DNA from: an uncultured Alphaproteobacteria bacterium
GTDB taxonomy: Bacteria > Pseudomonadota > Alphaproteobacteria > Rhizobiales > Xanthobacteraceae
DNA length: 64,000 nucleotides
Direction of reading: 5' to 3'
Assembly (NCBI GenBank): GCA_963810125.1
Contig: CAWEMK010000001.1
Location: 86,694-150,693, forward strand
Both the position numbers and the translations under genes were made by a program. Of the stretch, positions 38,768 through 57,553 are shown piece by piece. The stretch's first letter is position 1; every line of letters starts with the position of its first letter. The notes beneath the pieces were generated by a model. That model made no database searches. It was given only the letters and a program-made list of their open reading frames with translations, and was not told where the DNA came from.

Positions 38768-38976
38768 TTTGGTTCAAGCGATCTGGCAACGTGGACAAGA
38801 CAGCGGCTTAACCTGGGTTTGGCAAAATGCCGCGTACCGCTTTCAGGCCCATGAGTATATGGGCTCAAGCGCACCCTCGCAAATGCCTCGAAAAATGGGA
38901 AATTATGACGCCTGCCGCTTGCGGATGATTGAATTACTTCCATCAGCCGTGAGCTCAGGGTCGCGCGGCCGCAAAC

Positions 38977-40155
38977 CTACTTATGGTGAGTATTGGTCGC
39001 CCGCTCGCGCAATCGGTAAAACTGGATGGCGGCTCGCGCGGTTTCCGGCCGTAGTTTTTTAAATCGATCGAGATACTCCCCGGAAACGCCGACCGGCCGC
39101 TGGTCGGCACCCCCCTGCAGGGCAAGCAAGGCGTGAGTCGTCTTCCAGGAAAACTCGATCGACTTTGCGAGGATCAGGATTTGATCGCCGGTATCATGAA
39201 CCAAGGCTCGCTCCACTGCGCCGATCGGCAGATCGGCCAGCAAGCTCAGCGCTTCCGCCGTTTCGTCGAATTTTCCACGCGACGCAAACTCGTAAACGCG
39301 CGCCTCGGTCAGTTCGCCATTCTTGTGCAGCTGCTCGATGTTGGCACGCGCGGCCGGAAAATTGGGCGAATGATCGCGCAACTGGGTCTGAATCTGGTCC
39401 GCCGCGCGCTTGATCATGTCGCGAACCAGATCCGCTTTGCTGCGATCCGCGGTCTCAAATTTGAGCCGCACCGTTTCCGACGCGGTTTCGAACAGCGTCA
39501 ACAAATACTCGCGCGGAATTTCCGGGCGCGACCAAACGAGCAACGCAAGTTCGTCATCGCTTTCGGAGCGTGAGACAAGCGTTGAATAGCCGAATTGGGA
39601 AAACTTGGCCCCGGTATTCGCCGCGGTGCTGATGACGACTTTCTGATTGCCCCGCTCAACAAGAATATCAGTGACATTCTCACTGAGATTTTTGCGCTGC
39701 GAGATCGCCAACAGGTGTTCCTGACCTTTAGTCTTCGCGCCGGTCACCAGCGTATCATCGTCGAGAGATTCAGAGCGCCTCAAAACGGGACCAGCGACGG
39801 CAATCGAGTCGTCCAACGCTAGTGTCCGGCTCGCATTCATTGGGGCATTGGCGATGGCCGAAAGCCTTTCACCGAATGCGACGCGCGCCGAATGCTCAAT
39901 CTCCGACAGCAGGCGGGTCATAACGTCGTCGAACAATAACATCTGCTCGGGATCAAAGTGATCGGAACCGGCGACGAACAAATCCGTGATCCGCCGGAGG
40001 ATCTCGGCCCGCGTACCGATATTTTTCTGCTGGATCGCAACCTCAAGTTCATCGACCAGGGACTTATGGCCTGGCGCAACGTTCTGGTCAGCGGCGGAAT
40101 TTCGATTCCGCCGGTCTGCCGAAAGGCCTGACTGCAATGCGTTGTTATGCGGCAT
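38977..40155 (-). CDS. DUF2336 domain-containing protein
   Basis: ORF 38977..40194. DUF2336-like sequence (LALDDSIAVAGPVLRRSESLDDDTLVTGAKTKGQEHLLAISQRKNLSENVTDILVERG). ATG 40155 or 40164 overlaps the end of the upstream GGDEF-EAL gene. Confidence 0.65.
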   Translation of the reverse strand: MPHNNALQSGLSADRRNRNSAADQNVAPGHKSLVDELEVAIQQKNIGTRAEILRRITDLFVAGSDHFDPEQMLLFDDVMTRLLSEIEHSARVAFGERLSAIANAPMNASRTLALDDSIAVAGPVLRRSESLDDDTLVTGAKTKGQEHLLAISQRKNLSENVTDILVERGNQKVVISTAANTGAKFSQFGYSTLVSRSESDDELALLVWSRPEIPREYLLTLFETASETVRLKFETADRSKADLVRDMIKRAADQIQTQLRDHSPNFPAARANIEQLHKNGELTEARVYEFASRGKFDETAEALSLLADLPIGAVERALVHDTGDQILILAKSIEFSWKTTHALLALQGGADQRPVGVSGEYLDRFKKLRPETARAAIQFYRLRERATNTHHK

Positions 40156-43100
40156 AGTCGACATCTGGAATGTTGTAAGCACGGTGGAAATCAATCTGTG
40201 CCGATGGGCACGGAGGCTGGAACAGGAAGCCCTGCAGCGACGTCACCCCGGCCAGGCGCAAAAGGCGATATTGTTCTACCGTTTCCACACCTTCGGCAGT
40301 GGTCGCAATATCGAGGCTTCGCGCCAAAGTAAGCGTTGCCGCGATAATAGCGGCACACTCGGTGCGTTTCGTCAGGTTTTGGGTGAACGATTTGTCGACC
40401 TTGATTTTGTTAAACGGGAACATCATCAACTGGCTCAGTGACGAATATCCCGTACCGAAATCGTCGAGCGCGACGGCAATGCCGAGGTTCTTGAATTGAT
40501 GCAGAACCGGCAGACACTCCGTCGCGGATTCGATAAGGGCCGTTTCGGTGATCTCCAGCTCCAGCCGCTCGGGCAATAATCCCGACTGCGCCAACGCGCA
40601 CATGACAACGTCGACCAGGTTATTCTTTCTGAATTGCACCGCGGACAAGTTGACAGCCACTTTGATGTCTTTGGGCCAAGACGCAGCCTCCGCGCAAGCG
40701 GTCTGCAATAACCATTCACCGATTTGCGTGATCATGCCGGTCTCTTCCGCAAGCGGAATAAACTGGTCGGGCAGGATTATGCCTTTTGTCGGATGTCTCC
40801 ATCGAATGAGCGCCTCGGCGCCGCAAATCACACTCGTTTTGGTGTCGATAATCGGCTGGTAGTGGAGCACCAGCTCGTCCTGCTGAATGGCGCGGCGCAG
40901 CTCGCTCTCGAGTTCGTGCCGCGCGCTGGCGGCCAGGCTCATTTCCGGGTCGAAGAAACGATATCCATTTCGGCCGGCCGATTTAGCGCGATACAGAGCC
41001 AGGTCCGCCATTTTCATGAGACTATCGGAATTGGCCGCATGCTCGGGCGCCAGGGCGATTCCGATGCTCGTGGCAATATTCACTTCGTTGCCTTCGATAT
41101 TGAACGGCCTGGAAATAACCTCGGTAATTCGGTCTGCAAGCGCAGATGCAGCCTCGCGCTGGTTATTGTCCCGGTCCTGAACGATCGCGAATTCGTCGCC
41201 GCCAAGACGCGCCAGCACGTCGGTTTCCCGAAGCGATGCTTTGAGACGGGCCGCGGTTTCCCGCAGCAATGCGTCGCCGACCGCATGGCCAAGCGTATCG
41301 TTGACGTGCTTGAAACGGTCAAGATCCAGCAACAGTACGGCAAATGGGTCGCCCCGCCTGCGGTGCCGCGCAACAGCTTCTTCGATCTTTTCCATAATCG
41401 CGAGGCGGTTGGCGAGACCCGTTAAAACGTCGTGATGCGCCATGAATGCAATGCGCTGTTCGGATCTTTTCCGCTCTGTAACATCCTCGATAACCACGAT
41501 GAGGTGCCTCGGCGTACCTTGCGTGTCGCGAACAACAATGCGGCTTGTCGCCAAAATTCGCGAGTGGCCAACGGGCATTTCAATTTCGTAGTCACTTGGA
41601 TAGGCGCCAATCGCGCCTGCAAGTGCTTCGCTGTCGGTCGCATCGATCCGCTCGGCATCCTTGGTCCGATAGATATCGAATACGGTTTTTCCGACGACAT
41701 CGCCCCTCGTCACCTTGAGCATCGCCTCAAACGCGCGGTTCACAAGCATAAACTTGCGCGTCACAGCATCCTTCACGACAACCGCGACAGGAACATTTTC
41801 GATAATTGAATTCAGAAATTGTTTTGCTTCACCCAGCTCGCGCTCGGCATGCAGATGCGCCGTGATATCCTGATGAACTGCGACGGAACCGCCGTCGGGC
41901 ATGGCCTTGCGGCTCACCGAAAATGTCCGGCCGTCCCGAAGTTCGTTGATGACGTATCCGGGATCGGGCAGGAAAGCTTCCTCGATCCGATCCCTGATAT
42001 ATTTCTGCGCGTCCTGCGGGCACGAACCGGCCCTTATTCGAGCTTGCAAAATGTCCGGCAGTGTCGTCCCGGGCTTTACGTCTTCCGGATTTAGGCCATA
42101 CATCTTGCTGTAGAGATCATTGGCCAGCACCAGCCTCTGGTCGGCCCCAAACATGCAAATCCCTTGCGGCATGTTTTCCAGAGTTGCATTCAAAAGCATG
42201 TTGGTATGTTCGAGGCTCTGTTTCGCGCGATCCCGCAGGATATGCCCTCGAACGCTGAAGGCCGTTGCGGCCAGAATCAGCAACGTCAGGACGATTGCGA
42301 TGAAATAGCCGGATGTCTTTTGTGCCTCGAGACGGGAAAATATCTCGTGCGACGCAAGGCCGACGGTAATGACAAGAGGAAAGCCGTTGACCGATCGATA
42401 AGCTATCAGTCGTTGAACACTGTCGCTTAAACCGCTCTGCGTATAGTACCACCCGGCTGTCGGCGTTCTTTTGAACAGATCAGCACCAGAAAAGTCCTTT
42501 CCGAGCACGGATAGAGTGTGTCCGCTGGTCGCCCGAACAATTCCATCCAGCCCAATGACCCGGATGTAACCTTCGTGGCCGATGTCGACAGAGTTATAGA
42601 TGCGCGTCAGATAACCTGGATCGAGCGATGCGACGATGGCCCCCCTGAGGGATTGGTCAGCTACTCCAACAGGGCGCGAAAGCTGGATCGACCATTGCGC
42701 GGTCGATTGATTGAAGATTGGTTTGCTGATGACCAGCTTGTCGATCTGCGATACGACATTGCCGCGATCGCGCGCGGTTTCACCGCCATCTCGCTTTGCC
42801 GTTCCGTCGCTGCTGAGTCTTACATCACCGTTGTTGTCGACAATGCTGACTCTTAGATCTTCATATTTGAGCACGCGCGTCGATTTCAGCCATCCGGCCA
42901 AATCAAATTTATTTTTGTCTCGCTCATAGAGCGTCCTGATAATCAACAAAGTACGGTCGATTTCGGTCAATGAGCGCGAAAGGTGTTCCTCCAGAGCGCC
43001 CGCCAGATTTGTGGAATTTTGAATCGCGGCCCGTTCGGCGCTCTCGTGCTCGTTTTTCAAAAAGAAAAACAAAGTCGCCCATACGAGGCTAATCAGGATG

Positions 43101-43195
43101 GTCCCGAATAGCACCGATCGATACTTGAAAAACGGCTGCCATGACTTTTTAAAATTGGTCACGGAGAAAGCCGCGAGGCCATCATTGCCAATCAT
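40145..43195 (-). CDS. membrane sensor diguanylate cyclase/phosphodiesterase (Cache-like periplasmic domain, 2 PAS, GGDEF, EAL)
   Basis: Two TM segments flank a periplasmic domain of about 250 aa. PAS regions are present. GGDEF motif (RLGGDEFAIV) and EAL motif (GAEALIRW...DDFGTGYSSL). Confidence 0.9.
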   Translation of the reverse strand: MIGNDGLAAFSVTNFKKSWQPFFKYRSVLFGTILISLVWATLFFFLKNEHESAERAAIQNSTNLAGALEEHLSRSLTEIDRTLLIIRTLYERDKNKFDLAGWLKSTRVLKYEDLRVSIVDNNGDVRLSSDGTAKRDGGETARDRGNVVSQIDKLVISKPIFNQSTAQWSIQLSRPVGVADQSLRGAIVASLDPGYLTRIYNSVDIGHEGYIRVIGLDGIVRATSGHTLSVLGKDFSGADLFKRTPTAGWYYTQSGLSDSVQRLIAYRSVNGFPLVITVGLASHEIFSRLEAQKTSGYFIAIVLTLLILAATAFSVRGHILRDRAKQSLEHTNMLLNATLENMPQGICMFGADQRLVLANDLYSKMYGLNPEDVKPGTTLPDILQARIRAGSCPQDAQKYIRDRIEEAFLPDPGYVINELRDGRTFSVSRKAMPDGGSVAVHQDITAHLHAERELGEAKQFLNSIIENVPVAVVVKDAVTRKFMLVNRAFEAMLKVTRGDVVGKTVFDIYRTKDAERIDATDSEALAGAIGAYPSDYEIEMPVGHSRILATSRIVVRDTQGTPRHLIVVIEDVTERKRSEQRIAFMAHHDVLTGLANRLAIMEKIEEAVARHRRRGDPFAVLLLDLDRFKHVNDTLGHAVGDALLRETAARLKASLRETDVLARLGGDEFAIVQDRDNNQREAASALADRITEVISRPFNIEGNEVNIATSIGIALAPEHAANSDSLMKMADLALYRAKSAGRNGYRFFDPEMSLAASARHELESELRRAIQQDELVLHYQPIIDTKTSVICGAEALIRWRHPTKGIILPDQFIPLAEETGMITQIGEWLLQTACAEAASWPKDIKVAVNLSAVQFRKNNLVDVVMCALAQSGLLPERLELEITETALIESATECLPVLHQFKNLGIAVALDDFGTGYSSLSQLMMFPFNKIKVDKSFTQNLTKRTECAAIIAATLTLARSLDIATTAEGVETVEQYRLLRLAGVTSLQGFLFQPPCPSAQIDFHRAYNIPDVDYAA

Positions 43196-43392
43196 TTCAA
43201 ATAATTAGTCGAAAGCCCTTGATTTTCCGTTATATGGAACCGTGAGACATCCCCCCGCTTTGAGCCATAAAAAGGTGCGGGCCGCGCGCGTTAATAATTT
43301 ATTTTGCGTTAGTGCACTTTCGATCAACAACCGCGAGGCCGCTCTCGCCAGGCTACGCCGTGCAAAGTTAATCGCAGCAGACCTGCGTTCAT

Positions 43393-44829
43393 GTGACGTT
43401 TAGGATGACGAACGGGCCGATCATTGAAACAGATATCCCGGCGCGGCTCGATCGCCTCCCATGGGGACGCTTTCACACGCTGGTAGTCATCGCCCTCGGT
43501 GTCACGTGGATCCTCGACGGCCTCGAGGTCACGCTTGCCGGCAGCCTGGCGGGCGCTCTGAAAGAAAGTCCGAGTTTGCATTTTTCAAACACGGACATTG
43601 GTTTTACAAGCAGCGCCTATCTCGCTGGCGCCACGCTCGGAGCGATTTTTTTCGGTTGGCTGACGGATCGGCTCGGTCGCAAAAAACTTTTTTTCGTAAC
43701 GCTCGCCGTCTACCTCACGGCGACAGCCGCCACCGCCGCCTCGTGGAATGTCGAAAGTTTCGCGCTTTTTCGTTTTCTCACGGGTGCCGGAATCGGCGGC
43801 GAATATTCCGCCATCAATTCGACCATCCAGGAACTGGTTCCCGCGCGGGTGCGCGGCCGGAATGACCTGATGATCAACGGCAGCTTCTGGATTGGGGCTG
43901 CGCTGGGTGCACTCGGCTCATTGGTTGTGCTCGACCCGCATGTCATCGACCCCGAGCTCGGTTGGCGTCTTGCATTCCTGATTGGCGCCGCCCTGGCCGG
44001 CGTGATTTTCCTGATGCGGCTCTGGATTCCCGAAAGTCCGCGCTGGTTGATAACGCATGGTCACGCTGACGAGGCGGCTCGTGTTGTCGCCAGCATAGAA
44101 AGCCAGTTTCCGGACCTTCCGCCGGAGCACGACCTGCCACGCGTTCGTCTGCGCGCGCGCAAATCAACATCGCTTCGCCTGGTGGCCTTTACCTTGTTCA
44201 AGCAATATCGGCGCCGGACGGTCGTCGGACTAAGCCTCATGGCCTCGCAGGCGTTTTTCTACAATGCCATCTTTTTTACGTACGCGCTTATCCTGACCGA
44301 CTTTTATGGCATCGCGTCGGACCAGGTCGGCTGGTATTTGCTGCCCTTTGCAATTGGAAACTTCACAGGGCCTGTCCTGATCGGACGGTTTTTCGACACT
44401 CATGGCCGCAGGCTGATGATTGCCCTGACCTACGTTTCCTCCGGTGTGCTATTGGCGACAACTGGCTGGCTTTTCGCGCGCGACCTTATTGGCGCCGGGA
44501 CGCAAACGGTGTGCTGGATGGTGATCTTTTTCTTTGCATCATCGGCAGCGAGTTCGGCCTATCTCACGGTCAGTGAGACCTTTCCGCTTGAAATTCGGGC
44601 GCTAGCGATTGCATTTTTTTACGCGGTCGGGACCGGTATCGGCGGCATTATCGGGCCGCTGCTGTTTGGCGCGCTCATCGACACAGGTTCGCGCACGAGC
44701 GTATTTGCAGGCTATTTGATCGGCGCGGTCTTGATGATCGTCGCGGGATGCATCGCCTGGCGCTGGGGCGTCGACGCCGAGCGCAAATCGCTGGAAGCCG
44801 TCGCCCGGCCGCTGACGTTTGTCGATTAA
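43393..44829 (+). CDS. MFS transporter (metabolite:H+ symporter-like)
   Basis: 478 aa with about 12 hydrophobic helices. RLDRLPWGRFH N-terminus and GWLTDRLGRKK loop motif. The start is GTG 43393 or ATG 43405. Confidence 0.85.
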   Translation: MTFRMTNGPIIETDIPARLDRLPWGRFHTLVVIALGVTWILDGLEVTLAGSLAGALKESPSLHFSNTDIGFTSSAYLAGATLGAIFFGWLTDRLGRKKLFFVTLAVYLTATAATAASWNVESFALFRFLTGAGIGGEYSAINSTIQELVPARVRGRNDLMINGSFWIGAALGALGSLVVLDPHVIDPELGWRLAFLIGAALAGVIFLMRLWIPESPRWLITHGHADEAARVVASIESQFPDLPPEHDLPRVRLRARKSTSLRLVAFTLFKQYRRRTVVGLSLMASQAFFYNAIFFTYALILTDFYGIASDQVGWYLLPFAIGNFTGPVLIGRFFDTHGRRLMIALTYVSSGVLLATTGWLFARDLIGAGTQTVCWMVIFFFASSAASSAYLTVSETFPLEIRALAIAFFYAVGTGIGGIIGPLLFGALIDTGSRTSVFAGYLIGAVLMIVAGCIAWRWGVDAERKSLEAVARPLTFVD

Positions 44830-44886
44830 TGAACGGATGATAACAGCTTCGCCACGAGCCGGCCGACGCGCCATCAGAAGATGACT

Positions 44887-45603
44887 TTAGCCCGACGTCA
44901 CAAGATCGCGCAGCGCGTCCGGAGCAAAAATAACGATCCCGCCGCGTTCGAGCTTGAGCCACTTCCGGCGCTGCCAATCCTGCAATTGCTTGTTTGCGCT
45001 TTCCCGCGACACGCCGATCATCTGACTTATTTCACGCTGGGTGACATAAATCTTGGTGCTGGGCCGTGCGGTCGCCGATGGCTGGTAGAGGTGCAAGAGG
45101 ACCTTGGCGAGGCGGTTCGGTAACCCGAGGAAAACAATATCCTCGACCTGCTCGCTCGTGCGGCGCAACCGCGCGCACAGAATATTGATCAATCGTATCG
45201 CGACTTCCGGATCATCCCGCAGTATCGGGATGAAATCGCGGCGCTCGATAACCATCAGTTCACAATTGTCGATAGCAACCGCGTCAGCGGAGCGCTGCCC
45301 TCCGTCGAGAAATGCAATTTCCCCGAAGAGTTCACCGGGGACGACCAGGTTGAAAATTGCGTCTTTCCCCTGTTCGGACGGCGCACTGATTCTCACGGCA
45401 CCGGCTCGAACCGCATAAAGCTTCGAGCCGATATCGCCTTTGTGAAATATGGCTGCGCCTTTTTTTACTCTTGTCGTAATGACACGGGGCGCGATCCGAT
45501 CGATGATCGTATGGCCCAGATCCTTGAAAAATGGGTGGGCGCGAAGCAACGCATGCTTGTCGAATGATTGCGTTTGACTATTCTTGCTTGCGCCCATTGC
45601 CAT
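44887..45603 (-). CDS. Crp/Fnr family transcriptional regulator
   Basis: cNMP-binding fold (GELFGEIAFLDGGQRSADAVA) and a C-terminal HTH (TQREISQMIGVSRESANKQL). ATG 45603 lies within ORF 44887..45633. Confidence 0.85.
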   Translation of the reverse strand: MAMGASKNSQTQSFDKHALLRAHPFFKDLGHTIIDRIAPRVITTRVKKGAAIFHKGDIGSKLYAVRAGAVRISAPSEQGKDAIFNLVVPGELFGEIAFLDGGQRSADAVAIDNCELMVIERRDFIPILRDDPEVAIRLINILCARLRRTSEQVEDIVFLGLPNRLAKVLLHLYQPSATARPSTKIYVTQREISQMIGVSRESANKQLQDWQRRKWLKLERGGIVIFAPDALRDLVTSG

Positions 45604-45967
45604 CTTACATTTCGCCCCACCAGAAGCTCTCAAGACGAAACATACGATAAAATAGCCCGACAGGCAGGCTATCTCGTCAATGAATATTCAAATCTTACTT
45701 TGGCTGTTTAACTCTAACAGTGAAACAATTCGACTAAGTTCTCTAAAATACATCCATTTTCAGGAGCGGTCTGAAATGCACCGCGAATACCCGTATTTCC
45801 GGCCCGGCTGGCCCGCATTGCCATGTGCAGCCGGAATTTCCGGCTGGCCTGCGGGCCTATCGGTCACGTGAGTTAGCCCAACCGTGACGGAACGGACGGT
45901 CGGCCACCATTCACACTGCGTGCATGAGACCGTACAGTAGGCCCCATCCCGGGCTTGGAGGGCAAAC

Positions 45968-47176
45968 ATGGACGGGCCGAAAAAAGTCGCCATCGGTTGC
46001 CAGGGCGGCGGAATGCATGCTGCTTTCGAGGTCGGCGTCCTCACCGAAATCCTCAAGGACATCCGCGACAACAAGCGCATCGAACTTGTCGGCTTGAGCG
46101 GGACCTCGGCCGGCGCCTTGTGTGCATTGATGGTCTGGTACGGCCTTGCTCCGAAGCCTGGAAGCCCCGGCTCTGCCGATGAAGCCATCGAAAAGCTCAA
46201 CGGCTTCTGGGACGACTTCGTTGCGAGCACGGGCGCCGAGACTGCGCTGAATTTTCTGACTTACGGCGCATTTTGGGCGGAAGAGAAAGAGATTCCGGTG
46301 CTTGGCGTAAACGCGCCAATCCTCGGTCTCAATCCGTACGGCGCACTCTTTAAGGCGCTCGCCGCCAGCCTGCCGAGTCTTGGCATACGCAAACAATATT
46401 TTGATCTGGAGGAGATGCTTGCCAAGGCCTGTCCGGATTTCGACCGGATCAACTGGCCAGACTTGACGACGCGCGTGCTGATCGGCGCCTCGGAGGTCGT
46501 CAATGGTTTTGAAACCGTATTTGACTCTGACGTCAATAAGAATACGCAGCACGAAAATAAAGGCATGCACGCCGTAAAAGTTACCAAGGACAGATCTCGT
46601 TACTGGCGCCAGAAATTGCCGCTCACTTTGTCCGGGGTCGCCGCATCAGGAACATTGCCCTCTTTACGGGAAGCCGAACACATCAAGCCGGGCGGCCACT
46701 ACTGGGACGGCCTTTACTCGCAGAATCCGCCCGTGCGCGAGTTCTTCGATCCGCCGGTGCAAAAGCCCTCGCCCTCGGCAGGGCCCAAACATGTGCCCGA
46801 TGAACTGTGGATCATACGCATCAACCCACAGCAATGGCCGGAAGTGCCGTCATCCAACAAAGACATCCAGGACCGCCAAAACGAACTGATGGGAAATCTG
46901 TCGCTGAACAAAGACCTGGATTTTATTATGACGGTGAATGCCTGGACTGAACGCTACGCACGCCAACAATTTGCGAAAGACCACAAGCCGGTGACGGTAC
47001 GCACGATCAAGATGGAGAAAATGACCGCGGACAACCTGTCATATTCATCCAAGTTTGACCGCAGCCGCGCCTTCATGGACGAGCTGCGCAAGGAGGGCCG
47101 CAAGGTGACCCGGGAGTGGCTCGACCGCTGGCACAAAGGCAAGGCCGGCAGCTATCCCGAGGACGCAGCGTATTGA
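45968..47176 (+). CDS. patatin-like phospholipase
   Basis: Oxyanion GCQGGGMHAAF, nucleophile elbow GTSAG, catalytic DG (YWDGLYSQNPP). Strong SD ggaggg lies 6 nt before the ATG. Confidence 0.85.
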   Translation: MDGPKKVAIGCQGGGMHAAFEVGVLTEILKDIRDNKRIELVGLSGTSAGALCALMVWYGLAPKPGSPGSADEAIEKLNGFWDDFVASTGAETALNFLTYGAFWAEEKEIPVLGVNAPILGLNPYGALFKALAASLPSLGIRKQYFDLEEMLAKACPDFDRINWPDLTTRVLIGASEVVNGFETVFDSDVNKNTQHENKGMHAVKVTKDRSRYWRQKLPLTLSGVAASGTLPSLREAEHIKPGGHYWDGLYSQNPPVREFFDPPVQKPSPSAGPKHVPDELWIIRINPQQWPEVPSSNKDIQDRQNELMGNLSLNKDLDFIMTVNAWTERYARQQFAKDHKPVTVRTIKMEKMTADNLSYSSKFDRSRAFMDELRKEGRKVTREWLDRWHKGKAGSYPEDAAY

Positions 47177-47228: not shown

Positions 47229-47633
47229 ATGCCGAATGAGAAAAAAAGCAGCTCAGACGATATTCAAGGTTTCAAAGACAGCATTTTCAGGAATTTTTCC
47301 TTGCTGGCGTTACCGTGGGTGTCCTTCCAGCGCGACATGCTCGCAATTTTAAAGAAAGGCATTGAAGATACCAGTCATGTCAAACCGGTTCAGAAACTGA
47401 CATTGCTTGAACTGCACGCTCTGATGATGGTCCTGGATCCATCGCGAACGTGGAGAAGCCCCTTTGATGCTGATTTTGAAAAGCGCGTGGAAGATACATA
47501 CAAAGAAGCCTTCCCCAAACTGCTTTCCGGTTCCATTCACTTTATCGAAGCCCAGGAGGCAATCTTGCAGCATATGAGTGACGCACTCATCACGCTAAAG
47601 GATGGCAACAAAACCAAAAGCCCCAGCAAGTAG
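47229..47633 (+). CDS. hypothetical protein (AT-rich orphan)
   Basis: 134 uninterrupted codons in clearly AT-richer DNA (23 of 60 G+C in 47341-47400 by my count). An open frame this long is unlikely by chance at that composition. No motif recognised. Confidence 0.5.
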   Translation: MPNEKKSSSDDIQGFKDSIFRNFSLLALPWVSFQRDMLAILKKGIEDTSHVKPVQKLTLLELHALMMVLDPSRTWRSPFDADFEKRVEDTYKEAFPKLLSGSIHFIEAQEAILQHMSDALITLKDGNKTKSPSK

Positions 47634-47743: not shown

Positions 47744-50700
47744 ATGAGTGATGTACGGCGAAACATTGACCTCGCGATCATCGGTCTTTCCTGTCGATTT
47801 CCTGGCGCGGCCACCGCCGACGAGTATTGGAAGAATTTGTGCGACGGCGTTGAGTCGATCGCTTTTTTTTCAGATCAGGACCTTGTTGCAGCCGGCGTCG
47901 ACCCTGCCCTGGTCGCTAATCCACGGTACGTAAAGGCTGCGCCGATGCTGCGGGACGTCGAGATGTTCGACGAATCGTTCTTCGGTTACTCCCCCAAAGA
48001 CGCCGCACTGATGGACCCGCAGCATCGCTTGTTCCTGGAGGTGTGCTGGGAGACATTCGAAAACGCGGGCTATGACCCGGTTGGCTACCCCGGGAAAGTT
48101 GGTGTGCTCTCGACCGCCGGCGGCGTCGTTACAAGCTATCTTCTGGCAAAATTGCACCACGCAGATTTTCCTGGCCAGACAGCCAGCACTTCGCACATCA
48201 ACAATGACAAAGATTTCCTGAGTACCCGCGTTTCCTACAAGCTGAATCTCAGAGGCCCCAGCTTTACGATTCAGTCGGCGTGCTCGTCGTCTTTGCTGGC
48301 AGTCCACCAGGCATGTCAGATCCTCAGGTTCGATGAGTGCGATATGATGCTGGTCGGAGGCTCGGTAGTACGCGTGCCCCAGATCGAGGGGTATTTGGCA
48401 GAAAAACGAAACGTTCATTCGCTCGACGGGCACTGCCGTCCCTTCGACTCGGTTGGTCAGGGGACTATTTTTGCCAGCGGTGTCGGTGCCGTGTTGATCA
48501 AGCCCCTGCAGCGCGCTGTCGCCGATCGCGACCATATTCTTGCGGTGATCAAAGGGACTGCGGCGAATAACGACGGGTCCGCCAAAAGCAGCTACACCGC
48601 GCCGAGCCTGGGCCAGCAGTCCCAGGCGGTCGTTGATGCCTTGAATTTGGCTGGAGTCAGCGCTGACAGCATTGGCTATGTCGAATGCCACGCCACCGGC
48701 ACGACCGTAGGCGACCCGCTGGAAATCGAAGCCCTAAGCATGGCCTTCCGAAAGGAAACTGGCCGCAAGCAATACTGTGCCATCGGTTCGGTCAAGGCCA
48801 ACATCGGGCATCCGGAACAGGCCGCGGGAATCGCCGGCCTTATCAAAACCGCGCTTGTGCTTCATCACAAAAAGATTCCGCCGAGCATCAATTATGAAAC
48901 ACCGAATCCGGCAATCAACTTCGCATCGTCGCCGTTTTACGTAAACACGAAGCTCCAGGATTTTCCTCGTGCTGACACGCCGCGGCGAGCCGCGCTCAAT
49001 AGTTTGGGAATCGGCGGCACGAATGCTTTCGCCATCCTCGAGGAGGCGCCGCCGCCCGGCGCGATCGCACACCAGTCGCCAGACCAATTTCCGTGCCTGG
49101 TCACCCTCTCCGCCAAAAGTGCTGACGCATTGGTGGCGCGTGTCGAGCAACTTCTGAACTGGCTCAACGACAATCCCGACGCACCGATTGGTGATCTTTG
49201 CTACACCACCAACGTCAGCCGAAGCCAGTTTGCCTTCCGCTTCGCAGCGTCCGCCCGATCAGTAGCGGAGCTGCAGAAGCACCTTGCATCATGGCTGCGA
49301 ACGGCGGCCGATCCGGCGAATTTACGACGCACCGGCAGTGCGCCAATCGCGTTCATGTTTTCCGGCCAGGGATCACAGCATGCGGGCATGGCCGCACGGC
49401 TCTATCGCACACACTCTGTTTTTCGGAATGTCATGGATCGCTGTCATGCCTTGGCGAAATCGGATCTTGAGCACGGCTTGCTCGACGTGATTTTTGCAAA
49501 GGACAGCGATGCGGCATTGGTCAACCGCACCGACTACACTCAACCTGCGCTGTTTGCCGTTGAATATGGCCTCGCCGAGCTCATGAAATCCTGGGGCATC
49601 GCACCCGACGCAGTGATTGGGCATAGCCTGGGAGAGTTCGTCGCTGCCTGTGCAGCGAATGTCATGACGCTCGAAGACGCCATGCGTCTGGTCATTGCTC
49701 GCGGTGCCTTGATGCGCCAATTGCCGAACGGCGGCATGGCCGCGATATTCGCGTCAGAATCCGTGGTGCGTGAGTTCATAGACAAGAGCGCGCCCCGGTT
49801 GGCTGTGGCCGCAATGAATGGGCCCTTGAATTCAGTCGTGTCAGGCGACCGGGATGAATTGAAAGCGCTATTGCAAGAGTTGGACCGACAAAACATTGGC
49901 TATCGGGAATTACAGGTTTCCAACGCTTTTCACTCGGCAAGTACGGAGCCCATTCTTGATGATCTCGAAAATATTGCGAGCCAGATCAAGTACAACCCGC
50001 CCAAATTACCCCTGATATCCAACCTCACCGGCGGGCTGATGTCGGCCGCGCCTGATAAAATCTACTGGCGGCGGCACCTTCGTGAACCAGTGCGGTTCGG
50101 AGACGGGATGCATGCGTTGGATGAGCTCGGCTGCCGGACGTTTGTTGAGGTCGGCCCACACCCGGTGCTGCTGCCAATCGCACAGGCTTGCCTTGGACAA
50201 AAAGCCAGGTCCGCCGGCTGGGCAGCTACGCTCAACCGTCAAAAGTCGGACGCCGACTCAATGTCCGAAATGCTGGCCGCGCTGTATCGCGCCGGCCACG
50301 ACATAAATTGGGCTGCTGTGCATGCCGACGCGTCGTGGCGCCGAATTCCCTTGCCCACTTACCCCTTCCAGCGCAAGCGCCACTGGATCGAAGACAACGC
50401 GATCCGTCCCGAACAAGTACGAACCGTTGCCGAACGACTTCATCCGCTGGTGGGCGCTCGCATAAAATCTACGGCTAATGAGGTCTGTTATGAGGCGCGC
50501 TACGGCGTCCACCAGGCCAGCTTCCTTACCGATCATAGAGTTGCAGGATCCATCGTCCTTCCAACCACGGCCGAACTGGAGGCAGCCACGGTCGTCGGCC
50601 GGATGCATTTCGCAACGTCGCAGATCAGTTTCGACAATGCGATGCATCACCGGGCGATGTCGTTTTTCAACGGCGAAGATCGGACTGTGCGGATGGTGGT

Positions 50701-53700
50701 CACTCCGCTGAAATCCGACAAAGCAAATTTCAAACTGGTAAGCGCGGACACTGACGACCCGAAGGTCTGGCAAACCCACATGACGGGCACGCTGCGCAAG
50801 TCCGAGGCGCCGTCCGGACCGGCATTTTCGGTGAAGCAGGTCCGGGCCCGGTGCCCGCAAACATTGCCTGTTGCCGACTTCTATGACCGGCTTGACCGGC
50901 TTGGGCTCGAATATGGACCGAGCTTTCGCGGCGTGCGGGAATTGCACCTCGGCCAAAATGAGGCGCTAACCAAAGTGCGGCTTCCGGACGGATTTGCAGA
51001 TGCGCAATTCGTGATGCACCCCGCGTTTTTGGACGCATGCCTGCACGCTTATCCTTTCATACTTGATGGTGCGGAGAAGGCCGAAAGAGATCGCCGCAAG
51101 GCCTACCTGCCCGTCTCGCTGGAAGGCTTCCGCTGCTACCAGGACGGGACCGACAATGCATGGGTGCACACCAGACTGCGGAGTGTCGATAAAGACGATA
51201 CGCAGGTGATCGACATTCGGGTTTACGACGAGGCCGAGCGGCCGATCGCAGATCTGGACGGACTGACCGTCCGCCTGTTGCCAATCGATAAAGTGCAACC
51301 CTCGAGCGCACGCACGGACAACTTGTTCTATCGGCCGATCTGGCGAAAGAGCGTTAGAAATTCTACCAGCCCTGAAAAGGCGCACCCGCCCGCGAGCTGG
51401 ATGATCTTTGCCGATGCAAAAGGTGTCGGTGTTGCGCTGGCCGGCAGGCTGGAAGCCGCTGGCCATCATTGCCACCTCGTCTATAGGGACAATGCTTTCG
51501 CCCACCCGGGCAAACGAACATGGACCATCAATGAAAGGCAGCCGCCCGATTTTCGCCGATTGCTGGAGCAATTCGCTGCGAGCGAGACGCTGCGATGCGA
51601 CGGCGTCGTCTATCTATGGGGGTTGGATGCCCCGTCTTTCGACGGCCTGACGCTTGCGCGATTGAAGAGCGGCAACGAGATGATGTGCCGCGGGGCGCTC
51701 GCGATCTTGCAGGCCCTTGCCGATACCCGGTCGACCATTCCGATCGGCGGCGGCCTCTGGTTTGTAACAACAAACACTCAGAAGACAGAAGGCGAGAACC
51801 AGCTTGTTGATCCGGTCCAGGCGCCGCTCTGGGGTTTAGGACGAACCGCTGCGATCGAATATCCGGCCATTTGGGGCGGGCTAATCGACTTGCAACTGGA
51901 TAATGACCTGACGCCCGATGTTGATTTGCTGGCAGCGGAATTGCTCCACCCGGATGGCGAGACGCAGATTGCCATCTCCGCCAGCGGAGAGCGCCATATC
52001 CATCGGCTCGTCACGCAATCGATTGACGCGCTGCCGGCCCAGCAACCGCGGGTGCGCGGGGACGCAACCTATCTTGTGACCGGCGGCCTGGGAATGTTGG
52101 GGCGCCGTGTCGCCCGATGGCTCATCAGCAACGGTGCGAAGCACCTTGTCCTGACGGGTCGAAATGCAAGTCCGGAAGAGGCACAGAAACTATTCAGCCC
52201 GGCAGATACGCTCGGTGTATCAATCAAGCTCGTGGCCGCAGATATTAGCCGCGACGACGACGTCAGCCGCCTCATCCGTACGATCAGCAAAGATGGCCCG
52301 CCGTTAAGCGGCGTCGTGCACTCGGCCGGCATCTTGGATGATGGAATACTGGCTCAACTGGACTGGGATCGGTTTGCGCGCGTGTTCGCTCCAAAAATTT
52401 ATGGAAGCTGGCTTCTGCACGAACACACGAAATCGCTGGAGCTCGACTTCTTCATCTTGCAATCTTCTTTATTGAGCTTGTTGGGCTCTGCCGGCCAGGC
52501 GAACTATAGCGCCAGCAATACTTTTCTTGATTCCTTGGCAGCTCACCGCCGCTCGGCAGGCTTGTCGGCCACGGCGATCAACTGGTCCGCCTGGTCAGAG
52601 GGTGGGTTGGCCACCCGTTCGGGCGCTCGCGGCGAGGAAATGTGGTCGTCGCTGGGCGTGAAATTTATTTCACCCGATCTCGCAATGCAGGGGTTCGACA
52701 GACTGATGCACCGCGATGTGGAGCAGATCGCGGTCGCAATTGCCGATTGGTCCACTTACGCCGGCAGGATGGGCAACCCCCCGTTCCTTTCCGAACTCGA
52801 TCCTGCGGACGCGGGATCTGGATCGTATCAATCAGCGCCGCGAAGGCGCGTTGCGGCTGCCCCTCCGGTTCCGGTGAACGGCGACGCACGCCAGCAGCTT
52901 TTGAGCAGATTGCAACAGCGCATCATGGCGGAGCTTGGCTTCGCTGAGCCGATCGATCCAGACCGGCCATTAAATGAAATCGGGTTGGATTCGTTGAGGT
53001 CGGTGACGCTCGCGAATAATCTGGAGGACGAATTCGGGATACTGATTTCGATCTCGGAGCTCATCACCGGACCGACGATCAACCAGCTGTCGGAACACCT
53101 GTCCGGCCTGTTTGCACAACGCGCAAAGAACGACGCCGCGGAATTCGCTGCGGCGGCGGACTCGGCGCCGGCAATTGCGGCCAATGCTCACGCGCCGGAC
53201 GAAGCGACAATCGAACCTGCTGAAAACGGAAACGGCGCGCTGGATTATTATGATGTCGGAGCAATCGGGGTGACACCGCCGGCCAATGTGTCGGGCAACG
53301 AAGCCGCCGCGGTTACTCAACCAGCCGGTGAGACTGCACCGCGCAGTGCCGGAAAATGGTTGATTGCACCGCGGCCCAATCCCGACGCCAAAGTCCGTTT
53401 GTTCTGTTTTCCCTACGCGGGCGGTGGCCTCGTGTCTTTCCGGTCATGGGCGCAGCTGTTCAATGGCGCCGTGGAGGTGGTGGCAGTCGAGCCGCCGGGA
53501 CGCGGAACCCGCATCAATGAAACGCCCGTCGACGACCTAGATAGTTTTGTCGAGGGCCTTTTGCCTGAAATGGCTCAATGGCTGGACAGGCCATCTGCTT
53601 TTTTTGGCCACTGCCTGGGCGGACTGACAATGTTTGCGACGCTGTGTGCCCTGCCGGATGCTGGCGCGCGCTTCGTCAAGCATGCCTTTGCCTGCGGCGT

Positions 53701-54157
53701 GCGCCCTCCGCATCTGCTGAAGCGCAGGCGGGAGTTCGAGGACAATCTGGTCTACGACATGATGCTGCGCGGGGAATTTGACCTGAGAATTCCTCCTTAC
53801 GCCCAGACCGACGAGATCTTCGCGGATATCATCCGGCAATTCGATACGCCTGCGGCCAACAGGATGCTGGAGATACCGAAGCTGAGGAAGGTTTTGTTGC
53901 CGACAATCCGCGCCGAGTTCGGCATGGCCTATAAATATGAGTATCAGCCTGTCGAGCCCTTCGTCTTTCCGATCAGCAGCTTCGTCGGCGATGCGGACCC
54001 TTGGGTCTCGGAAGAAGACTCCGCAGGTTGGGGCGAGTTTACCCGCGGCGGATTCACCAACCACGTGCGCAAAGGTTCACATTTTCTGATGGCGGATGAC
54101 GGCGAATACATTCTGGAAACAATTAACCGGGAATTTGAAACTTTCGTTGTGCAGTGA
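47744..54157 (+). CDS. type I polyketide synthase, single module KS-AT-DH-KR-ACP-TE
   Basis: KS: Cys180 (TIQSACSSS, 48281-48283), CHATGT, NIGH. AT: GHSLGE (Ser628), NAFHS. DH: HRVAGSIVLP (His931). KR: YLVTGGLGMLG, LDD motif, NYSASN. ACP: GLDSL (Ser1750). C-terminal type II thioesterase-like domain: FCFPYAGGG, GHCLGG, GSHF. Confidence 0.92.
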   Translation: MSDVRRNIDLAIIGLSCRFPGAATADEYWKNLCDGVESIAFFSDQDLVAAGVDPALVANPRYVKAAPMLRDVEMFDESFFGYSPKDAALMDPQHRLFLEVCWETFENAGYDPVGYPGKVGVLSTAGGVVTSYLLAKLHHADFPGQTASTSHINNDKDFLSTRVSYKLNLRGPSFTIQSACSSSLLAVHQACQILRFDECDMMLVGGSVVRVPQIEGYLAEKRNVHSLDGHCRPFDSVGQGTIFASGVGAVLIKPLQRAVADRDHILAVIKGTAANNDGSAKSSYTAPSLGQQSQAVVDALNLAGVSADSIGYVECHATGTTVGDPLEIEALSMAFRKETGRKQYCAIGSVKANIGHPEQAAGIAGLIKTALVLHHKKIPPSINYETPNPAINFASSPFYVNTKLQDFPRADTPRRAALNSLGIGGTNAFAILEEAPPPGAIAHQSPDQFPCLVTLSAKSADALVARVEQLLNWLNDNPDAPIGDLCYTTNVSRSQFAFRFAASARSVAELQKHLASWLRTAADPANLRRTGSAPIAFMFSGQGSQHAGMAARLYRTHSVFRNVMDRCHALAKSDLEHGLLDVIFAKDSDAALVNRTDYTQPALFAVEYGLAELMKSWGIAPDAVIGHSLGEFVAACAANVMTLEDAMRLVIARGALMRQLPNGGMAAIFASESVVREFIDKSAPRLAVAAMNGPLNSVVSGDRDELKALLQELDRQNIGYRELQVSNAFHSASTEPILDDLENIASQIKYNPPKLPLISNLTGGLMSAAPDKIYWRRHLREPVRFGDGMHALDELGCRTFVEVGPHPVLLPIAQACLGQKARSAGWAATLNRQKSDADSMSEMLAALYRAGHDINWAAVHADASWRRIPLPTYPFQRKRHWIEDNAIRPEQVRTVAERLHPLVGARIKSTANEVCYEARYGVHQASFLTDHRVAGSIVLPTTAELEAATVVGRMHFATSQISFDNAMHHRAMSFFNGEDRTVRMVVTPLKSDKANFKLVSADTDDPKVWQTHMTGTLRKSEAPSGPAFSVKQVRARCPQTLPVADFYDRLDRLGLEYGPSFRGVRELHLGQNEALTKVRLPDGFADAQFVMHPAFLDACLHAYPFILDGAEKAERDRRKAYLPVSLEGFRCYQDGTDNAWVHTRLRSVDKDDTQVIDIRVYDEAERPIADLDGLTVRLLPIDKVQPSSARTDNLFYRPIWRKSVRNSTSPEKAHPPASWMIFADAKGVGVALAGRLEAAGHHCHLVYRDNAFAHPGKRTWTINERQPPDFRRLLEQFAASETLRCDGVVYLWGLDAPSFDGLTLARLKSGNEMMCRGALAILQALADTRSTIPIGGGLWFVTTNTQKTEGENQLVDPVQAPLWGLGRTAAIEYPAIWGGLIDLQLDNDLTPDVDLLAAELLHPDGETQIAISASGERHIHRLVTQSIDALPAQQPRVRGDATYLVTGGLGMLGRRVARWLISNGAKHLVLTGRNASPEEAQKLFSPADTLGVSIKLVAADISRDDDVSRLIRTISKDGPPLSGVVHSAGILDDGILAQLDWDRFARVFAPKIYGSWLLHEHTKSLELDFFILQSSLLSLLGSAGQANYSASNTFLDSLAAHRRSAGLSATAINWSAWSEGGLATRSGARGEEMWSSLGVKFISPDLAMQGFDRLMHRDVEQIAVAIADWSTYAGRMGNPPFLSELDPADAGSGSYQSAPRRRVAAAPPVPVNGDARQQLLSRLQQRIMAELGFAEPIDPDRPLNEIGLDSLRSVTLANNLEDEFGILISISELITGPTINQLSEHLSGLFAQRAKNDAAEFAAAADSAPAIAANAHAPDEATIEPAENGNGALDYYDVGAIGVTPPANVSGNEAAAVTQPAGETAPRSAGKWLIAPRPNPDAKVRLFCFPYAGGGLVSFRSWAQLFNGAVEVVAVEPPGRGTRINETPVDDLDSFVEGLLPEMAQWLDRPSAFFGHCLGGLTMFATLCALPDAGARFVKHAFACGVRPPHLLKRRREFEDNLVYDMMLRGEFDLRIPPYAQTDEIFADIIRQFDTPAANRMLEIPKLRKVLLPTIRAEFGMAYKYEYQPVEPFVFPISSFVGDADPWVSEEDSAGWGEFTRGGFTNHVRKGSHFLMADDGEYILETINREFETFVVQ

Positions 54158-54186: not shown

Positions 54187-57100
54187 TCAGGTGCGGTAGG
54201 AACTCTTTTCCAGCCTTACCTTGGCGCGAACGAGATCCGCGGTGTCAAATCCTTCGCTGAACGTCTGGTAGATCTCGCCGAGTTGCAATCGGCCCTTGTC
54301 CGCGTCCTTTTGCAGATCGTGCAAATCGCACATGCTCAGGCAAATTTTTAGCTCAAGCGATTTTGCCTTCTGTTCGTGCGCGATCGTAAGGCCTTTGGAA
54401 AAATAATGCTGCGCCTGATCCAGGTTCTGGTTCGATCGCAGGTATGTTTCGCCGAGCAAACGATATATTTCCGCCGCATAGAAGCGCTCGACGTTCTCGC
54501 CTTCGAGCCTCAATTGCACCTGCTCCAGGAATTCGAGCGCCTGCCCATAGCGTTTGTTCTTGATGCATACATCGACCAGCAAACCCAGGGAGTACGAATT
54601 AAACAATAACGCGCCCATCGCCCTTTCTTTTTCCAGGCCTTCCTGAATTTCGGCAATGCCTTTCTCGAATTCGCCTTGCTGGGCGCTTGCCCAGCCCCGC
54701 AAAATCAGGGCCATGGCGCGATAGTGCACAAACTCATGCTCTTCGCAGAGCGCGATGGCCGCGTCAGCCTGGCTTGCCACGATCGCGGACTCGCCGCGCA
54801 GCTGGTGCACGCGCAGGCTTATTGTTCGCGCCATTGCATCGCTGAACGGATGCCGGGCATCATCGGCGTAACGGCGGGCGTCCGCACATTGCCGCAACGC
54901 CTGATCTGGATACCCGAGAAACCAAAGGGCCAGCGCGTCGTATGACCTGACATGAACGCGCGGGTCCTGCGCTGACAGGTCGAAATACGCTGCGGCCTTG
55001 CCGTCCTCGCATAATCCAAGACCGCGCTCCAGCTCGGTGTGGGCGGCGGAAAATTTGCCTTGTGCAAATGAGGTGAACCCGAGGGCTTCGTGGGCAAGAA
55101 CCCGGCAGACTGAATCGTCGATGCTCTCGGCGGATTTCAGCAAATATTCGGCAAGGGCTTGCGCCTCAGGAAGGGCCGCACGCAGGAAATTCCAGGTCCA
55201 CATACCAAACACGGCCGGAAAGGTATGTTCATCAAGTCCGCTCTCCTTGCACAGCTGGAGTGCGCGCGTATACGCGCGCTTGACACTGTCGGAACTCCAG
55301 CCCTTTGTTGTCCGCAGGGAATTGCCGAGCGAAGTTTGAAGCAGCAGCTCGAGCTTGTTGCGCACCATTGGGTCGTCGATGCCGGGAACCAATTTCAATC
55401 CCCGTTCCAGATGACCAACGGCAGCGTTCGCCGATCGGCTCAGCGCGAGGTTACCGGCTTTTAGCCAGAAGTTGATCGCGGGCTCAACGAGACCAGCTTC
55501 CGTGAAGTGGTGAGCCACGATTTCCGGCTGGCTTGCGACGATGTCGGGAAACTTTTCTTCCATCTTGCGCGCGATCTGGCCGTGCAACTGCTGCCGCCGG
55601 CTCTTGAGCAGGCTCTCATAGGCCACGTCCCGCACCAGGGTGTGCTTGAAGCTATAGACCGCTTCCGGTGGCTCGCCATGGCGGAACACAAGTTCAGCCT
55701 CCTCAAGCTGGGCGAGAGCCTGTTTCAATGCCGGTTCTTTGCGCCCAGCCACCTCACGAATGAGGGAATAAGAGAACTCGCGCCCGATCGCTGCTCCGAT
55801 TTGGCCGATCTCTTTCACCGGCGCCATCCGGTCGAGGCGTGCCATCAAGGAGTCCTGGAGTGTCGCCGGAATGGCGAGCGGGAGCAGCGCTCCACCGAGT
55901 TCGATAGCCGTCGCCGTCCTTGACCAGGATGTCTCCTTCAAGCACCGCTTTCGTGAGTTCCTCGACGAACAACGGATTGCCGTCGGTCTTGGCGATAATC
56001 TGGTTCATCACTTCGGAAGGCAGCGCATGGCCGTGGGTTACTTGCGTAACGATGCTTTCAACGTTGCCACGATCGAGGCGGCCGAGCTTTATGACGCCGA
56101 CATTTGGAAGCCCGACCCAGGGCGGTTCGAATTCAGGCCGAAGGGTGAAAAGGGCAAGGGCCGGTATCTGGCGCATTCGATCGATCATGAGATCCAGCAG
56201 CTCGAGGGAGGTGGCATCGGCCCAATGTGCATCCTCGAACAAGAGCAAGATCGGTTTCTGATGCGCCAGCCTTTCGAATTGATCGAGCAATGCCGCCAGC
56301 GTGCGGCGAAGCTGCTGCGCGGGACTGAGCGTCAAGGCCGGATACCGGCCGCTCAATGGGATCGACAGCAGCGCCGCCAGCAGCGGGACTGCATTCCGGG
56401 CTTGCGACCCGGTCTTGCCGAGAAGCGTCTCCAGTCTGTCGAGGCGCTGTTGGGACGTATCGTCCGCCTTGAACCCCGCCGCCCGCTCCAGTTGGACGAT
56501 GAACGGATAAAGCGTGCTGTTGGTGTGGTACGGCGAACACTGGTAACGCAGGACCGTGTGCGGTTCGTCGGCGATGCGCTCTTCGAGCGCCGCCGCGAGA
56601 CGGGATTTGCCAATCCCCGGTTCACCTGAGATCAGCACAACCTGACCCTCACCTTTCCAGGCCAGGTGTTGGCGCTTCTGCAGGAAATCGATTTCCTCCT
56701 CGCGGCCAATAAGATTTGTCAGGCCGGCCGTATGGACCGCCGCAAAGCGGCTCTCGGAGGCCGACACGCCATCAACCGTCCATGCCGCAATCGGCTCGGA
56801 AAAACCCTTGAACGTGTGCGGACCAAGATCGCGCAGAAAGAACCGATCGCCGATCAGCCGCCGTGTGGAGGTGGCGATTACGATTGTCCCCGGCTCCGCC
56901 AGGGCCTGAACGCGGGCCGCCAGGCTTGGCGTATCGCCAACCACAATATTCTCGCGCAAGGCGCCTTCACCACCCACCACCACCACGCCGCTGGCGATAC
57001 CGATCCGGACGGCGAGCGGCTCTTGCGCGGGCGTCTTGAGCTGTGCAACCGCGGCAATAATATCGAGCCCCGCGCGTATGGTTCGCTCGGCATCGTCCTC

Positions 57101-57553
57101 GTGGGCGCGCGGGTAACCGAAATAGGCGAGGATCCCGTCGCCACGGAATTCGGCAAGGAAGCCGTCAGAGGCGAGCGCGATGCGGGCGCAGGCCGCCTGA
57201 AAGGCATCGATTACGGCACCCATGTCTTCCGGATCAAGCCGCGCCGAAAGCGCAGTCGAGCCCACGAGATCGCAGATCATCACGGTCAAGTGGCGTCGCT
57301 CGCCGCCAACCGTCGGGGCGTAGTTGCCAGGCGTATCTTTTGCGGCTTCCCGCGCGGTGGGCGCACCGGGAACGCTGCCCGCCATCATTTTGATGGCCCT
57401 GATGAGCCGTTTCCTGTCGCCCAGCGGGATCCCGAGTTTTTCGAGATCGCCTTCCGTCAACTCAGGCAGCACATCAGTGTCGATAGCGTTCTGGACGAAC
57501 GCCGACTCATACTGTCCGAGTCCCAAAGTTCGCAGCCAGCCGCCAATGTCCAT
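54187..57553 (-). pseudogene. SAM domain-class III nucleotide cyclase-STAND/AAA ATPase-TPR protein, interrupted by a single-base insertion near 55903
   Basis: ORFs 55754..57553 and 54187..55941 overlap in different frames. Removing one base after codon Tyr (ggc tat C gaa ctc) restores ...DGDGYELGGALLPLAIPATLQDSLMARLDR.... N-terminal SAM-like (WLRTLGLGQYESAFVQNAIDTDVLPELTEGDLEKLGI), cyclase (VMICDLVGST, FRGDGILAYFG), Walker A GEPGIGKS, Walker B LLLFEDAHWAD, and a long TPR-like C-terminus. Confidence 0.8.

Follow-up and report, generated by a model that had tools for sequence, protein, structure and literature searches.

A type II-like thioesterase domain with a conserved cysteine at the nucleophile position ends a reducing type I polyketide synthase of an uncultured Xanthobacteraceae bacterium

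Thioesterase (TE) domains decide the final product of polyketide and peptide assembly lines. The locus described here raises the question of what such a domain does when cysteine stands where the type II TE (TEII) class carries serine. The locus lies in a 64,000-nucleotide stretch of DNA (the window; contig CAWEMK010000001.1 of assembly GCA_963810125.1, positions 86,694 to 150,693) from an uncultured Alphaproteobacteria bacterium of the Xanthobacteraceae, and encodes a polyketide synthase (PKS) with ketosynthase (KS), acyltransferase (AT), dehydratase (DH), ketoreductase (KR), acyl carrier protein (ACP), and TE domains, in that order. The answer favoured here, held with moderate confidence from sequence, a structure model, and analogy with characterised enzymes, is that the TE would be an active Cys-His-Asp release domain that passes an enoyl or polyenoyl thioester to a nucleophile other than water. 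The domain and its predicted catalytic residues were located as follows.

53354-54157, plus strand: C-terminal TE domain of 267 amino acids (aa), with the TEII fold and a predicted Cys-Asp-His triad (PDB sequence search, AlphaFold, Foldseek)
53612-53614, plus strand: Cys1957, codon TGC, in the nucleophile position of FFGHCLGG (RifR alignment, codon survey)
53996-53998, plus strand: Asp2085, codon GAC, predicted triad acid (GDADP) in the RifR/ObiF-type position after a late strand (alignment, model)
54080-54082, plus strand: His2113, codon CAT, predicted triad base (GSHF) (alignment)

The in-frame translation of the domain included FCFPYAGGG, PGRGTR, FFGHCLGG, FVGDADPWV, and KGSHFL, and the original prediction, made from the DNA letters, had given the coordinates, reading frame, and residue numbers of Cys1957 and His2113 exactly. 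The best PDB sequence match was RifR (E 1e-32). Cys1957 aligned with the catalytic serine of RifR (GHSMG, which reads GHAMG in the deposited Ser-to-Ala chain), Asp2085 with the Asp of GDHDP, and His2113 with the His of GGHF. In an AlphaFold model based on 18 homologues (mean predicted local distance difference test score 91.4), the Cys lay between a strand (domain residues 81-86) and a helix (88-99), which is the nucleophile elbow, and Asp2085 directly after the strand at 207-212, which is the "position II" of RifR and not the EntF-type position. Foldseek searches against the PDB returned RifR, BorB, RedJ, and ClbQ as top matches, with template modelling (TM) scores of 0.76-0.87 and E values of 1e-17 to 1e-21 for RifR, BorB, and RedJ, while ObiF1, AB3403, and SulM ranked below these four. 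By alignment and model, the domain is therefore of the TEII fold with a RifR-type triad arrangement and Cys in the nucleophile position. The triad of Cys, His, and Asp that had been foreseen was borne out in this way, and a misalignment of the Cys off the elbow, which had been named as the result that would undo it, is ruled out by the RifR alignment together with the strand-Cys-helix geometry of the model.

The domain was a significant match to the PF00975 family profile and to solved TEII structures. It departed from the TEII class in two respects: GHCLGG, with Cys in all relatives, replaced the serine elbow GHSxG, and the domain was fused behind an ACP in an open reading frame (ORF) of 2137 aa and was not a stand-alone protein. 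Kinship with dienelactone hydrolases found no profile, sequence, or fold support. The original prediction had noted that a GxCxG elbow also marks polyhydroxyalkanoate synthases (PhaC), which are alpha/beta hydrolases that use a Cys-His-Asp triad. A PhaC-like domain that polymerises or oligomerises 3-hydroxyacyl units on its GxCxG Cys would share this motif and chemistry and could use the R-configured hydroxyacyls expected from a B-type KR, and nothing more speaks for it. PhaC was absent from the Pfam matches, from the PDB sequence search at E <= 0.01, and from the top 50 Foldseek matches; the domain is a TEII fold of 267 aa, the DH is conserved, and the protein encoded directly upstream of the PKS (orf134) has no phasin match. 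PhaC also differs in size and architecture, with no kinship to the TE closer than the general alpha/beta hydrolase fold, and this possibility is extremely improbable.

Conservation of the Cys was surveyed by a genome scan with one genome per species; of the 359 loci that it gave, the 80 best were retained. Among these, 77 had a readable elbow motif and 76 a readable codon, and together the two readings covered all 80. Cys was found at the elbow in 80/80 loci and Ser in none, with PKS identities of 41-96%, so that the alternation of Ser and Cys among orthologues that had been proposed as a check did not occur. The closest loci (64-96% identity) came from Pseudolabrys, Undibacter, and other soil Xanthobacteraceae metagenome-assembled genomes. 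The 41-48% group included Bradyrhizobium, Azospirillum sp. B510, Paraburkholderia mimosarum, P. nodosa, and P. tuberum, and also Burkholderia stagnalis, Trinickia, Entotheonella, and Rokubacteria. The Cys codon was TGC in 62 and TGT in 14 of the 76 loci, with no Ser codon. Because synonymous change was present without any one-step change to Ser across this range of identity, the Cys itself is, as judged from the codons, under purifying selection; chance or a sequencing error in the Cys codon is ruled out by the same conservation with TGC/TGT variation. Among close homologues bearing the motif, Cys was invariant (120/120, down to 44% identity) in an elbow of the form GHC[LVI]G[GA], two of the 120 having G[NY]C instead of GHC. 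Cys, Asp, and His were invariant in an alignment of 18 sequences and near-invariant in one of 46, where the sole departures were one or two misaligned rows.

The wider family was assessed with HMMER, run exhaustively against 1.84 billion representatives, which gave 286 proteins at E <= 1e-30, the best 150 of which were analysed as 148 domain units. Cys domains within a large synthase (PKS) made up 88/148 domains, stand-alone Ser proteins of about 250 aa 31/148, and fused Ser domains 6/148, while 14/148 had Asp, Gly, or Asn (the second domains of tandem TEs and two single domains). Nearly all Cys domains (88/94) were within megasynthases. Cys TEs had been described as rare; this holds among characterised enzymes, yet they are common in sequence space, because 88 of these 148 representative domains are fused Cys domains. 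On a neighbour-joining tree of the 148 domains, the nucleophile switched only about six times by parsimony, the stand-alone Ser TEIIs formed one clade, and the window TE fell in an all-Cys clade of 50 representatives. At 50% identity, the Cys clade comprised 88 or more representative clusters, from Xanthobacteraceae, Bradyrhizobium, Azospirillum, Burkholderia/Paraburkholderia, Entotheonella, and others. Four representatives of other Cys groups were all type I PKSs, with the architectures KS-AT-KR-ACP-TE-TE, KS-AT-DH-KR-ACP-TE-TE, KS-AT-methyltransferase-KR-ACP-TE, and a bimodule with an enoylreductase (ER).

The nucleophile was the sole alignment column that fully separated the fused Cys from the stand-alone Ser domains (86 first-position Cys domains of the 88 fused). 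Some lid and core positions differed partially between the two sets, and the Cys group had a lid longer by some 20 residues (median of 64 residues vs 43). Tandem TEII-like ends were observed in several PKSs (P0165, P0166, P0172-P0175, P0180, P0189, P0191, P0192, and P0198). The first domain of each pair was always of the Cys type (GHCxGA), and the second had Asp at the elbow (GHDxGA) with the triad Asp and His kept. From these motifs, the tandem arrangement is probably a Cys TE followed by a pseudo-TE.

The strictness of this pattern bears on the possibility that the domain simply hydrolyses its thioester to the free acid, the Cys being a lineage-frozen equivalent of Ser that leaves the outcome unchanged. 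This is a serious alternative, which we consider possible though rather improbable. The domain has the fold and the triad of hydrolytic type II TEs. If Ser were equivalent, however, the single-base change from TGC to AGC or TCC would be expected somewhere, and neither the 76 loci nor the 86 Cys domains in first position had it, while all 31 members of the stand-alone sister clade were Ser. The characterised natural Cys TEs are, moreover, all non-hydrolytic (PMC11792885).

A second question is whether the domain edits or releases. Stand-alone TEIIs were found beside the Cys-TE PKS in Burkholderia stagnalis (GHSMG), Bradyrhizobium japonicum USDA 123 (GHSFG), and Azospirillum B510 (GHSMG), so that related clusters hold a Ser TEII in trans plus a Cys TEII-like domain in cis. 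In the window cluster, the Cys TE was the only TE. Because Ser TEIIs adjoin the Cys-TE PKS in these three genera, release instead of editing is suggested for the Cys domain. The original prediction had called it a type II or editing-type TE fused in cis: the type II likeness and the fusion stood, and the editing role became unlikely. Under that role, the domain would clear a mis-primed or stalled ACP while another protein, for example a patatin-like one, released the product. The fold and the best matches of the domain are those of editing TEIIs, the fused TE of CylH provides a precedent (PMC5707447), and a patatin-like (FabD-fold) protein is conserved beside the PKS. CylH, however, keeps GHSMG where the window clade is strictly Cys, a separate Ser-type TEII is already present in related clusters, and a Bradyrhizobium plasmid cassette lacks the patatin gene and has only the Cys TE and a TEII as release enzymes. 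We therefore regard editing as an unlikely role.

The nature of the chain that reaches the TE was read from the rest of the module, the parts of which were the following.

47744-54157, plus strand: single-module type I PKS of 2137 aa (ORF list, translation, Pfam)
aa 10-385 of the PKS: KS (Pfam)
aa 537-846: AT (Pfam)
aa 900-1183: DH (Pfam)
aa 1441-1619: KR (Pfam)
aa 1722-1786: ACP (Pfam)
52991-52993, plus strand: Ser1750, codon TCG, phosphopantetheine site (GLDSL) in the ACP from which the TE receives its chain
aa 1885-2129: TE, PF00975 (Pfam, E 8.9e-26 to 9.5e-25)

The Cys-His-His of the KS, GHSxG of the AT, DSL of the ACP, and the KR and DH motifs were all present, as in modular or iterative type I PKSs. 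In an alignment of 46 full-length relatives, the catalytic motifs of all six domains were conserved: Cys180 and both His of the KS, GHSLGE with xAFHS (malonyl type) in the AT, HxxxGxxxxP, YGP, and DxxxH in the DH, GGxGxxG, LDD (B-type), and YxxxN in the KR, and the GLDSL serine of the ACP. The catalytic His931 and Asp1097 of the DH were invariant. All six domains are, on this alignment, under constraint. Domain analysis of the ORF showed neither an ER nor, ahead of the KS, a loading or docking region. Each cycle should give an (E)-2-enoyl thioester, and a polyenoyl chain if the module iterates; with the KS, malonyl-type AT, B-type KR, and DH conserved and no ER, the delivered chain is therefore predicted to be 2-enoyl or, with iteration, polyenoyl. 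A single action on a fatty-acyl starter and iteration to a polyene both fit the sequence alone. Comparison of the KS-AT with solved structures returned only generic cis-AT PKS modules (8xjy/8xju, 7zma, CurL), with no clue to iteration or starter.

Beta-lactone formation, which the original prediction had named among the reactions of characterised Cys TEs, is disfavoured by the invariant DH residues of these relatives. In an ObiF-like route, a (3R)-hydroxyacyl chain from the B-type KR would be loaded on Cys1957 and closed to a four-membered beta-lactone. The TE resembles ObiF in having His before Cys at the elbow, Asp in the RifR-like position, and an enlarged lid (PMC6668435), and the KR carries the LDD motif. 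This outcome is nevertheless less likely because the DH is intact in all 46 relatives, so that the beta-hydroxyl should be removed; ObiF was also a weak match (E 1e-6, against 1e-32 for RifR). We judge beta-lactone formation very unlikely. The same KR and DH, which predict no internal nucleophile on the chain, agree with plain hydrolysis, as does the Pfam survey of the window cluster, in which no condensation-type or other acceptor-handling enzyme was encoded.

Around the PKS, the following genes make up the conserved neighbourhood.

44887-45633, minus strand: Crp-family cyclic-nucleotide-binding regulator, divergent from the patatin-orf134-PKS genes (Pfam cNMP_binding and HTH_Crp_2; kept in 16 loci)
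45968-47176, plus strand: patatin-like acyl hydrolase/transferase with a GTSAG serine, codirectional and upstream of the PKS (Pfam PF01734)
47229-47633, plus strand: orf134, a conserved protein of 134 aa directly upstream of the PKS (same position in 25 loci)
54187-57553, minus strand: SAM-adenylate/guanylate cyclase-AAA16-TPR (STAND-type) gene, convergent with the PKS and here called cyclase-STAND (Pfam)

In 23 loci this patatin-like gene lay close to the PKS, and 28 more had a member of a second patatin-like family that is very divergent. The patatin-like and small proteins near the Azospirillum and other distant-group (41-48%) PKSs had no homology detectable by BLASTP to those of the window. 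In the distant-group patatin-like protein, MAG[AG]GA replaced GxSxG (L068, 10890-12209; L082, 12840-13853, Azospirillum sp. B510 AZL_RS29395), and on this motif the patatin fold may be without catalysis or put to another use. For orf134, neither Pfam nor NCBIfam gave a family match even at E <= 1. The protein appeared to be helical, with invariant residues that included L25, L28, P29, Q34, L38, A64, L65, D70, R76, and Q109.

The cyclase-STAND gene adjoined the PKS in 51/81 loci, the 41-48% group included. Its NCBIfam relative was the "TOMM system kinase/cyclase fusion protein", with a match below the model cut-off. In relatives it was one uninterrupted ORF of 1118-1121 aa; the window copy was split near 55900 by one frameshift into overlapping ORFs (55754-57553 and 54187-55941), with the break between residues 551 and 552, which is either a sequencing error or a pseudogene. 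Together, the cyclase-STAND protein and the Crp regulator are most simply read as a cluster-linked cyclic AMP (cAMP) control circuit.

In the distant group, an AMP-ligase, a FabG-like short-chain dehydrogenase/reductase (SDR), and a free ACP were encoded directly upstream of the PKS, often with a phosphopantetheinyl transferase (PPTase) and a stand-alone TEII, and sometimes with a zinc-type reductase. On plasmid pUSDA123-1 of Bradyrhizobium japonicum USDA 123, six genes (ligase-SDR-ACP-PKS with Cys TE-TEII-PPTase) lay between two copies of ISBdi2, which suggests that the pathway is mobile on symbiont plasmids as a unit resembling a composite transposon. This cassette occupied 35559-45654 of the record (L081), and the ISBdi2 transposase was of the IS1380 family. 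Upstream of the window cluster, a DUF2336 protein, a family-2 glycosyltransferase, and a dCache-PAS-GGDEF-EAL protein were encoded on the minus strand at 38977-40194, 37565-38767, and 40145-43195, respectively. The GC content dropped from about 0.60-0.64 to 0.54-0.57 over 40-48 kb, near where the PKS region begins.

For the release domain proposed at the outset, the steps would be as follows. The TE, of TEII ancestry, would be a catalytically competent chain-release domain, in which Cys1957, activated by His2113 and Asp2085, would take the finished chain from Ser1750 of the ACP as an S-acyl-enzyme thioester. The thioester would then be resolved by an intramolecular hydroxyl or an external acceptor and not by bulk water, and the conserved patatin-like protein may supply the acceptor or share it. 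The cyclase-STAND protein and the Crp-type regulator probably regulate the pathway or react to it. A release domain is favoured because of the strict conservation of the Cys, the co-occurring Ser TEIIs, the C-terminal position, and the literature on Cys TEs. Several points weigh against this proposal. No member of the clade has a known product, substrate, or acceptor, and the chemistry is read from sequence. With the KR and DH active, no beta-hydroxyl would be left after the last extension, and there would be no obvious internal nucleophile other than one brought in by the starter or an earlier cycle. Hydrolysis is still within the reach of a Cys thioesterase, and the precedent for a cis-fused TEII-like PKS domain, CylH, is an editing domain (PMC5707447). 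The triad geometry comes from the alignment and from the placement of strand and helix in the model. Finally, the distant-group patatin appears to have no nucleophile serine, which weakens a shared catalytic role for the patatin.

A TEII-derived, cis-fused, and strictly Cys clade at the end of reducing type I PKSs gives a new context and scale to a residue change that is itself already known. In the searchable literature, which covered few subscription journals so that a prior report is possible, no description of a natural TEII-type Cys TE on a PKS was found, and nothing relevant was found in the literature searched on a bacterial KS-AT-DH-KR-ACP-TE architecture or on such a Bradyrhizobium PKS. 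A broader proposal, which we put forward tentatively and regard as doubtful, is that these domains would be a widespread and undescribed termination of reducing type I PKSs, in which a lipid, a small molecule, or an internal hydroxyl, and not water, would accept the enoyl or polyenoyl chain from its enzyme thioester, with an unknown lipid-like product wired to the cyclase-STAND/cAMP-Crp pair and the patatin-like partner. The PKS-borne Cys clade offers new candidates for engineered chain release, and Ser and Cys versions side by side in one cluster form a clean natural experiment. The clade also gives a handle on a metabolite of common soil and plant-associated Alphaproteobacteria and Betaproteobacteria, with carriers that include the cultured and tractable Azospirillum sp. 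B510, Bradyrhizobium japonicum USDA 123, and Burkholderia stagnalis. If the domain merely hydrolyses, the finding shrinks to a family-level sequence curiosity.

Among known systems, the stand-alone TEIIs (RifR, RedJ, BorB, ClbQ, and YbtT) share with the window TE the fold (Foldseek TM 0.76-0.87, with 26-32% identity for the first three), the CFPxAGG, PGR, GHxxG, GDxDP, and GxHF motifs, and the position of the catalytic Asp. They differ in being separate editing or hydrolytic proteins of about 250 aa with a Ser elbow, whereas the window TE is a post-ACP fusion with Cys and a lid about 20 residues longer. The C-terminal TE of CylH, from the cylindrocyclophane PKS, is likewise a TEII-like domain fused to a type I PKS module; it carries GHSMG and was shown to edit and not to release (PMC5707447). 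The window TE differs from it in having Cys, and in that related clusters also encode separate Ser TEIIs.

The original prediction had named the Cys TEs of the obafluorin and sulfazecin nonribosomal peptide synthetases (NRPSs), and correctly so: ObiF (beta-lactone) and SulM (beta-lactam) have Cys TEs with a RifR-like triad and a large lid (PMC6668435, PMC11298585). Both resemble the window TE in their cis fusion to a carrier domain, Cys nucleophile, late-position Asp, and large lid, and ObiF also in the His before the Cys at the elbow. Unlike the window TE, they stand on NRPS modules and act on beta-hydroxy or beta-amino acyl peptides, while the window module is predicted from its intact DH to remove the beta-hydroxyl, leaving neither a beta-hydroxyl nor a beta-amine on the substrate. 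SulM differs further in its Gln-Cys-Asn elbow and positively charged pocket, the window elbow being His-Cys-Leu. The similarity was low for both: ObiF1 matched the window TE over residues 11-109 only (31 bits, E 1e-6) with 17% identity in Foldseek, and SulM had 18-19% identity in Foldseek.

The natural Cys TEs for which a described reaction was found (ObiF, SulM, the polymyxin TE, and BulbE) are all from NRPSs and all cyclise, in a way of which the Ser version is incapable (PMC6668435, PMC11298585, PMC11792885), and AB3403 is an uncharacterised Cys TE on an NRPS (PMC11792885). BulbE, the polymyxin TE, and AB3403 differ from the window TE in being NRPS type I-like TEs, BulbE being closest to the Pks13 TE, and Pik TE S148C is a laboratory mutant. 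Replacement of Cys by Ser leads to hydrolysis in BulbE and lowers the activity of the polymyxin TE 60-fold, and the reverse change, Ser to Cys, improves the engineered Pik TE (PMC11792885). What these enzymes offer for comparison with Cys1957 is a thioester acyl-enzyme, which permits attack by weak nucleophiles (PMC11792885).

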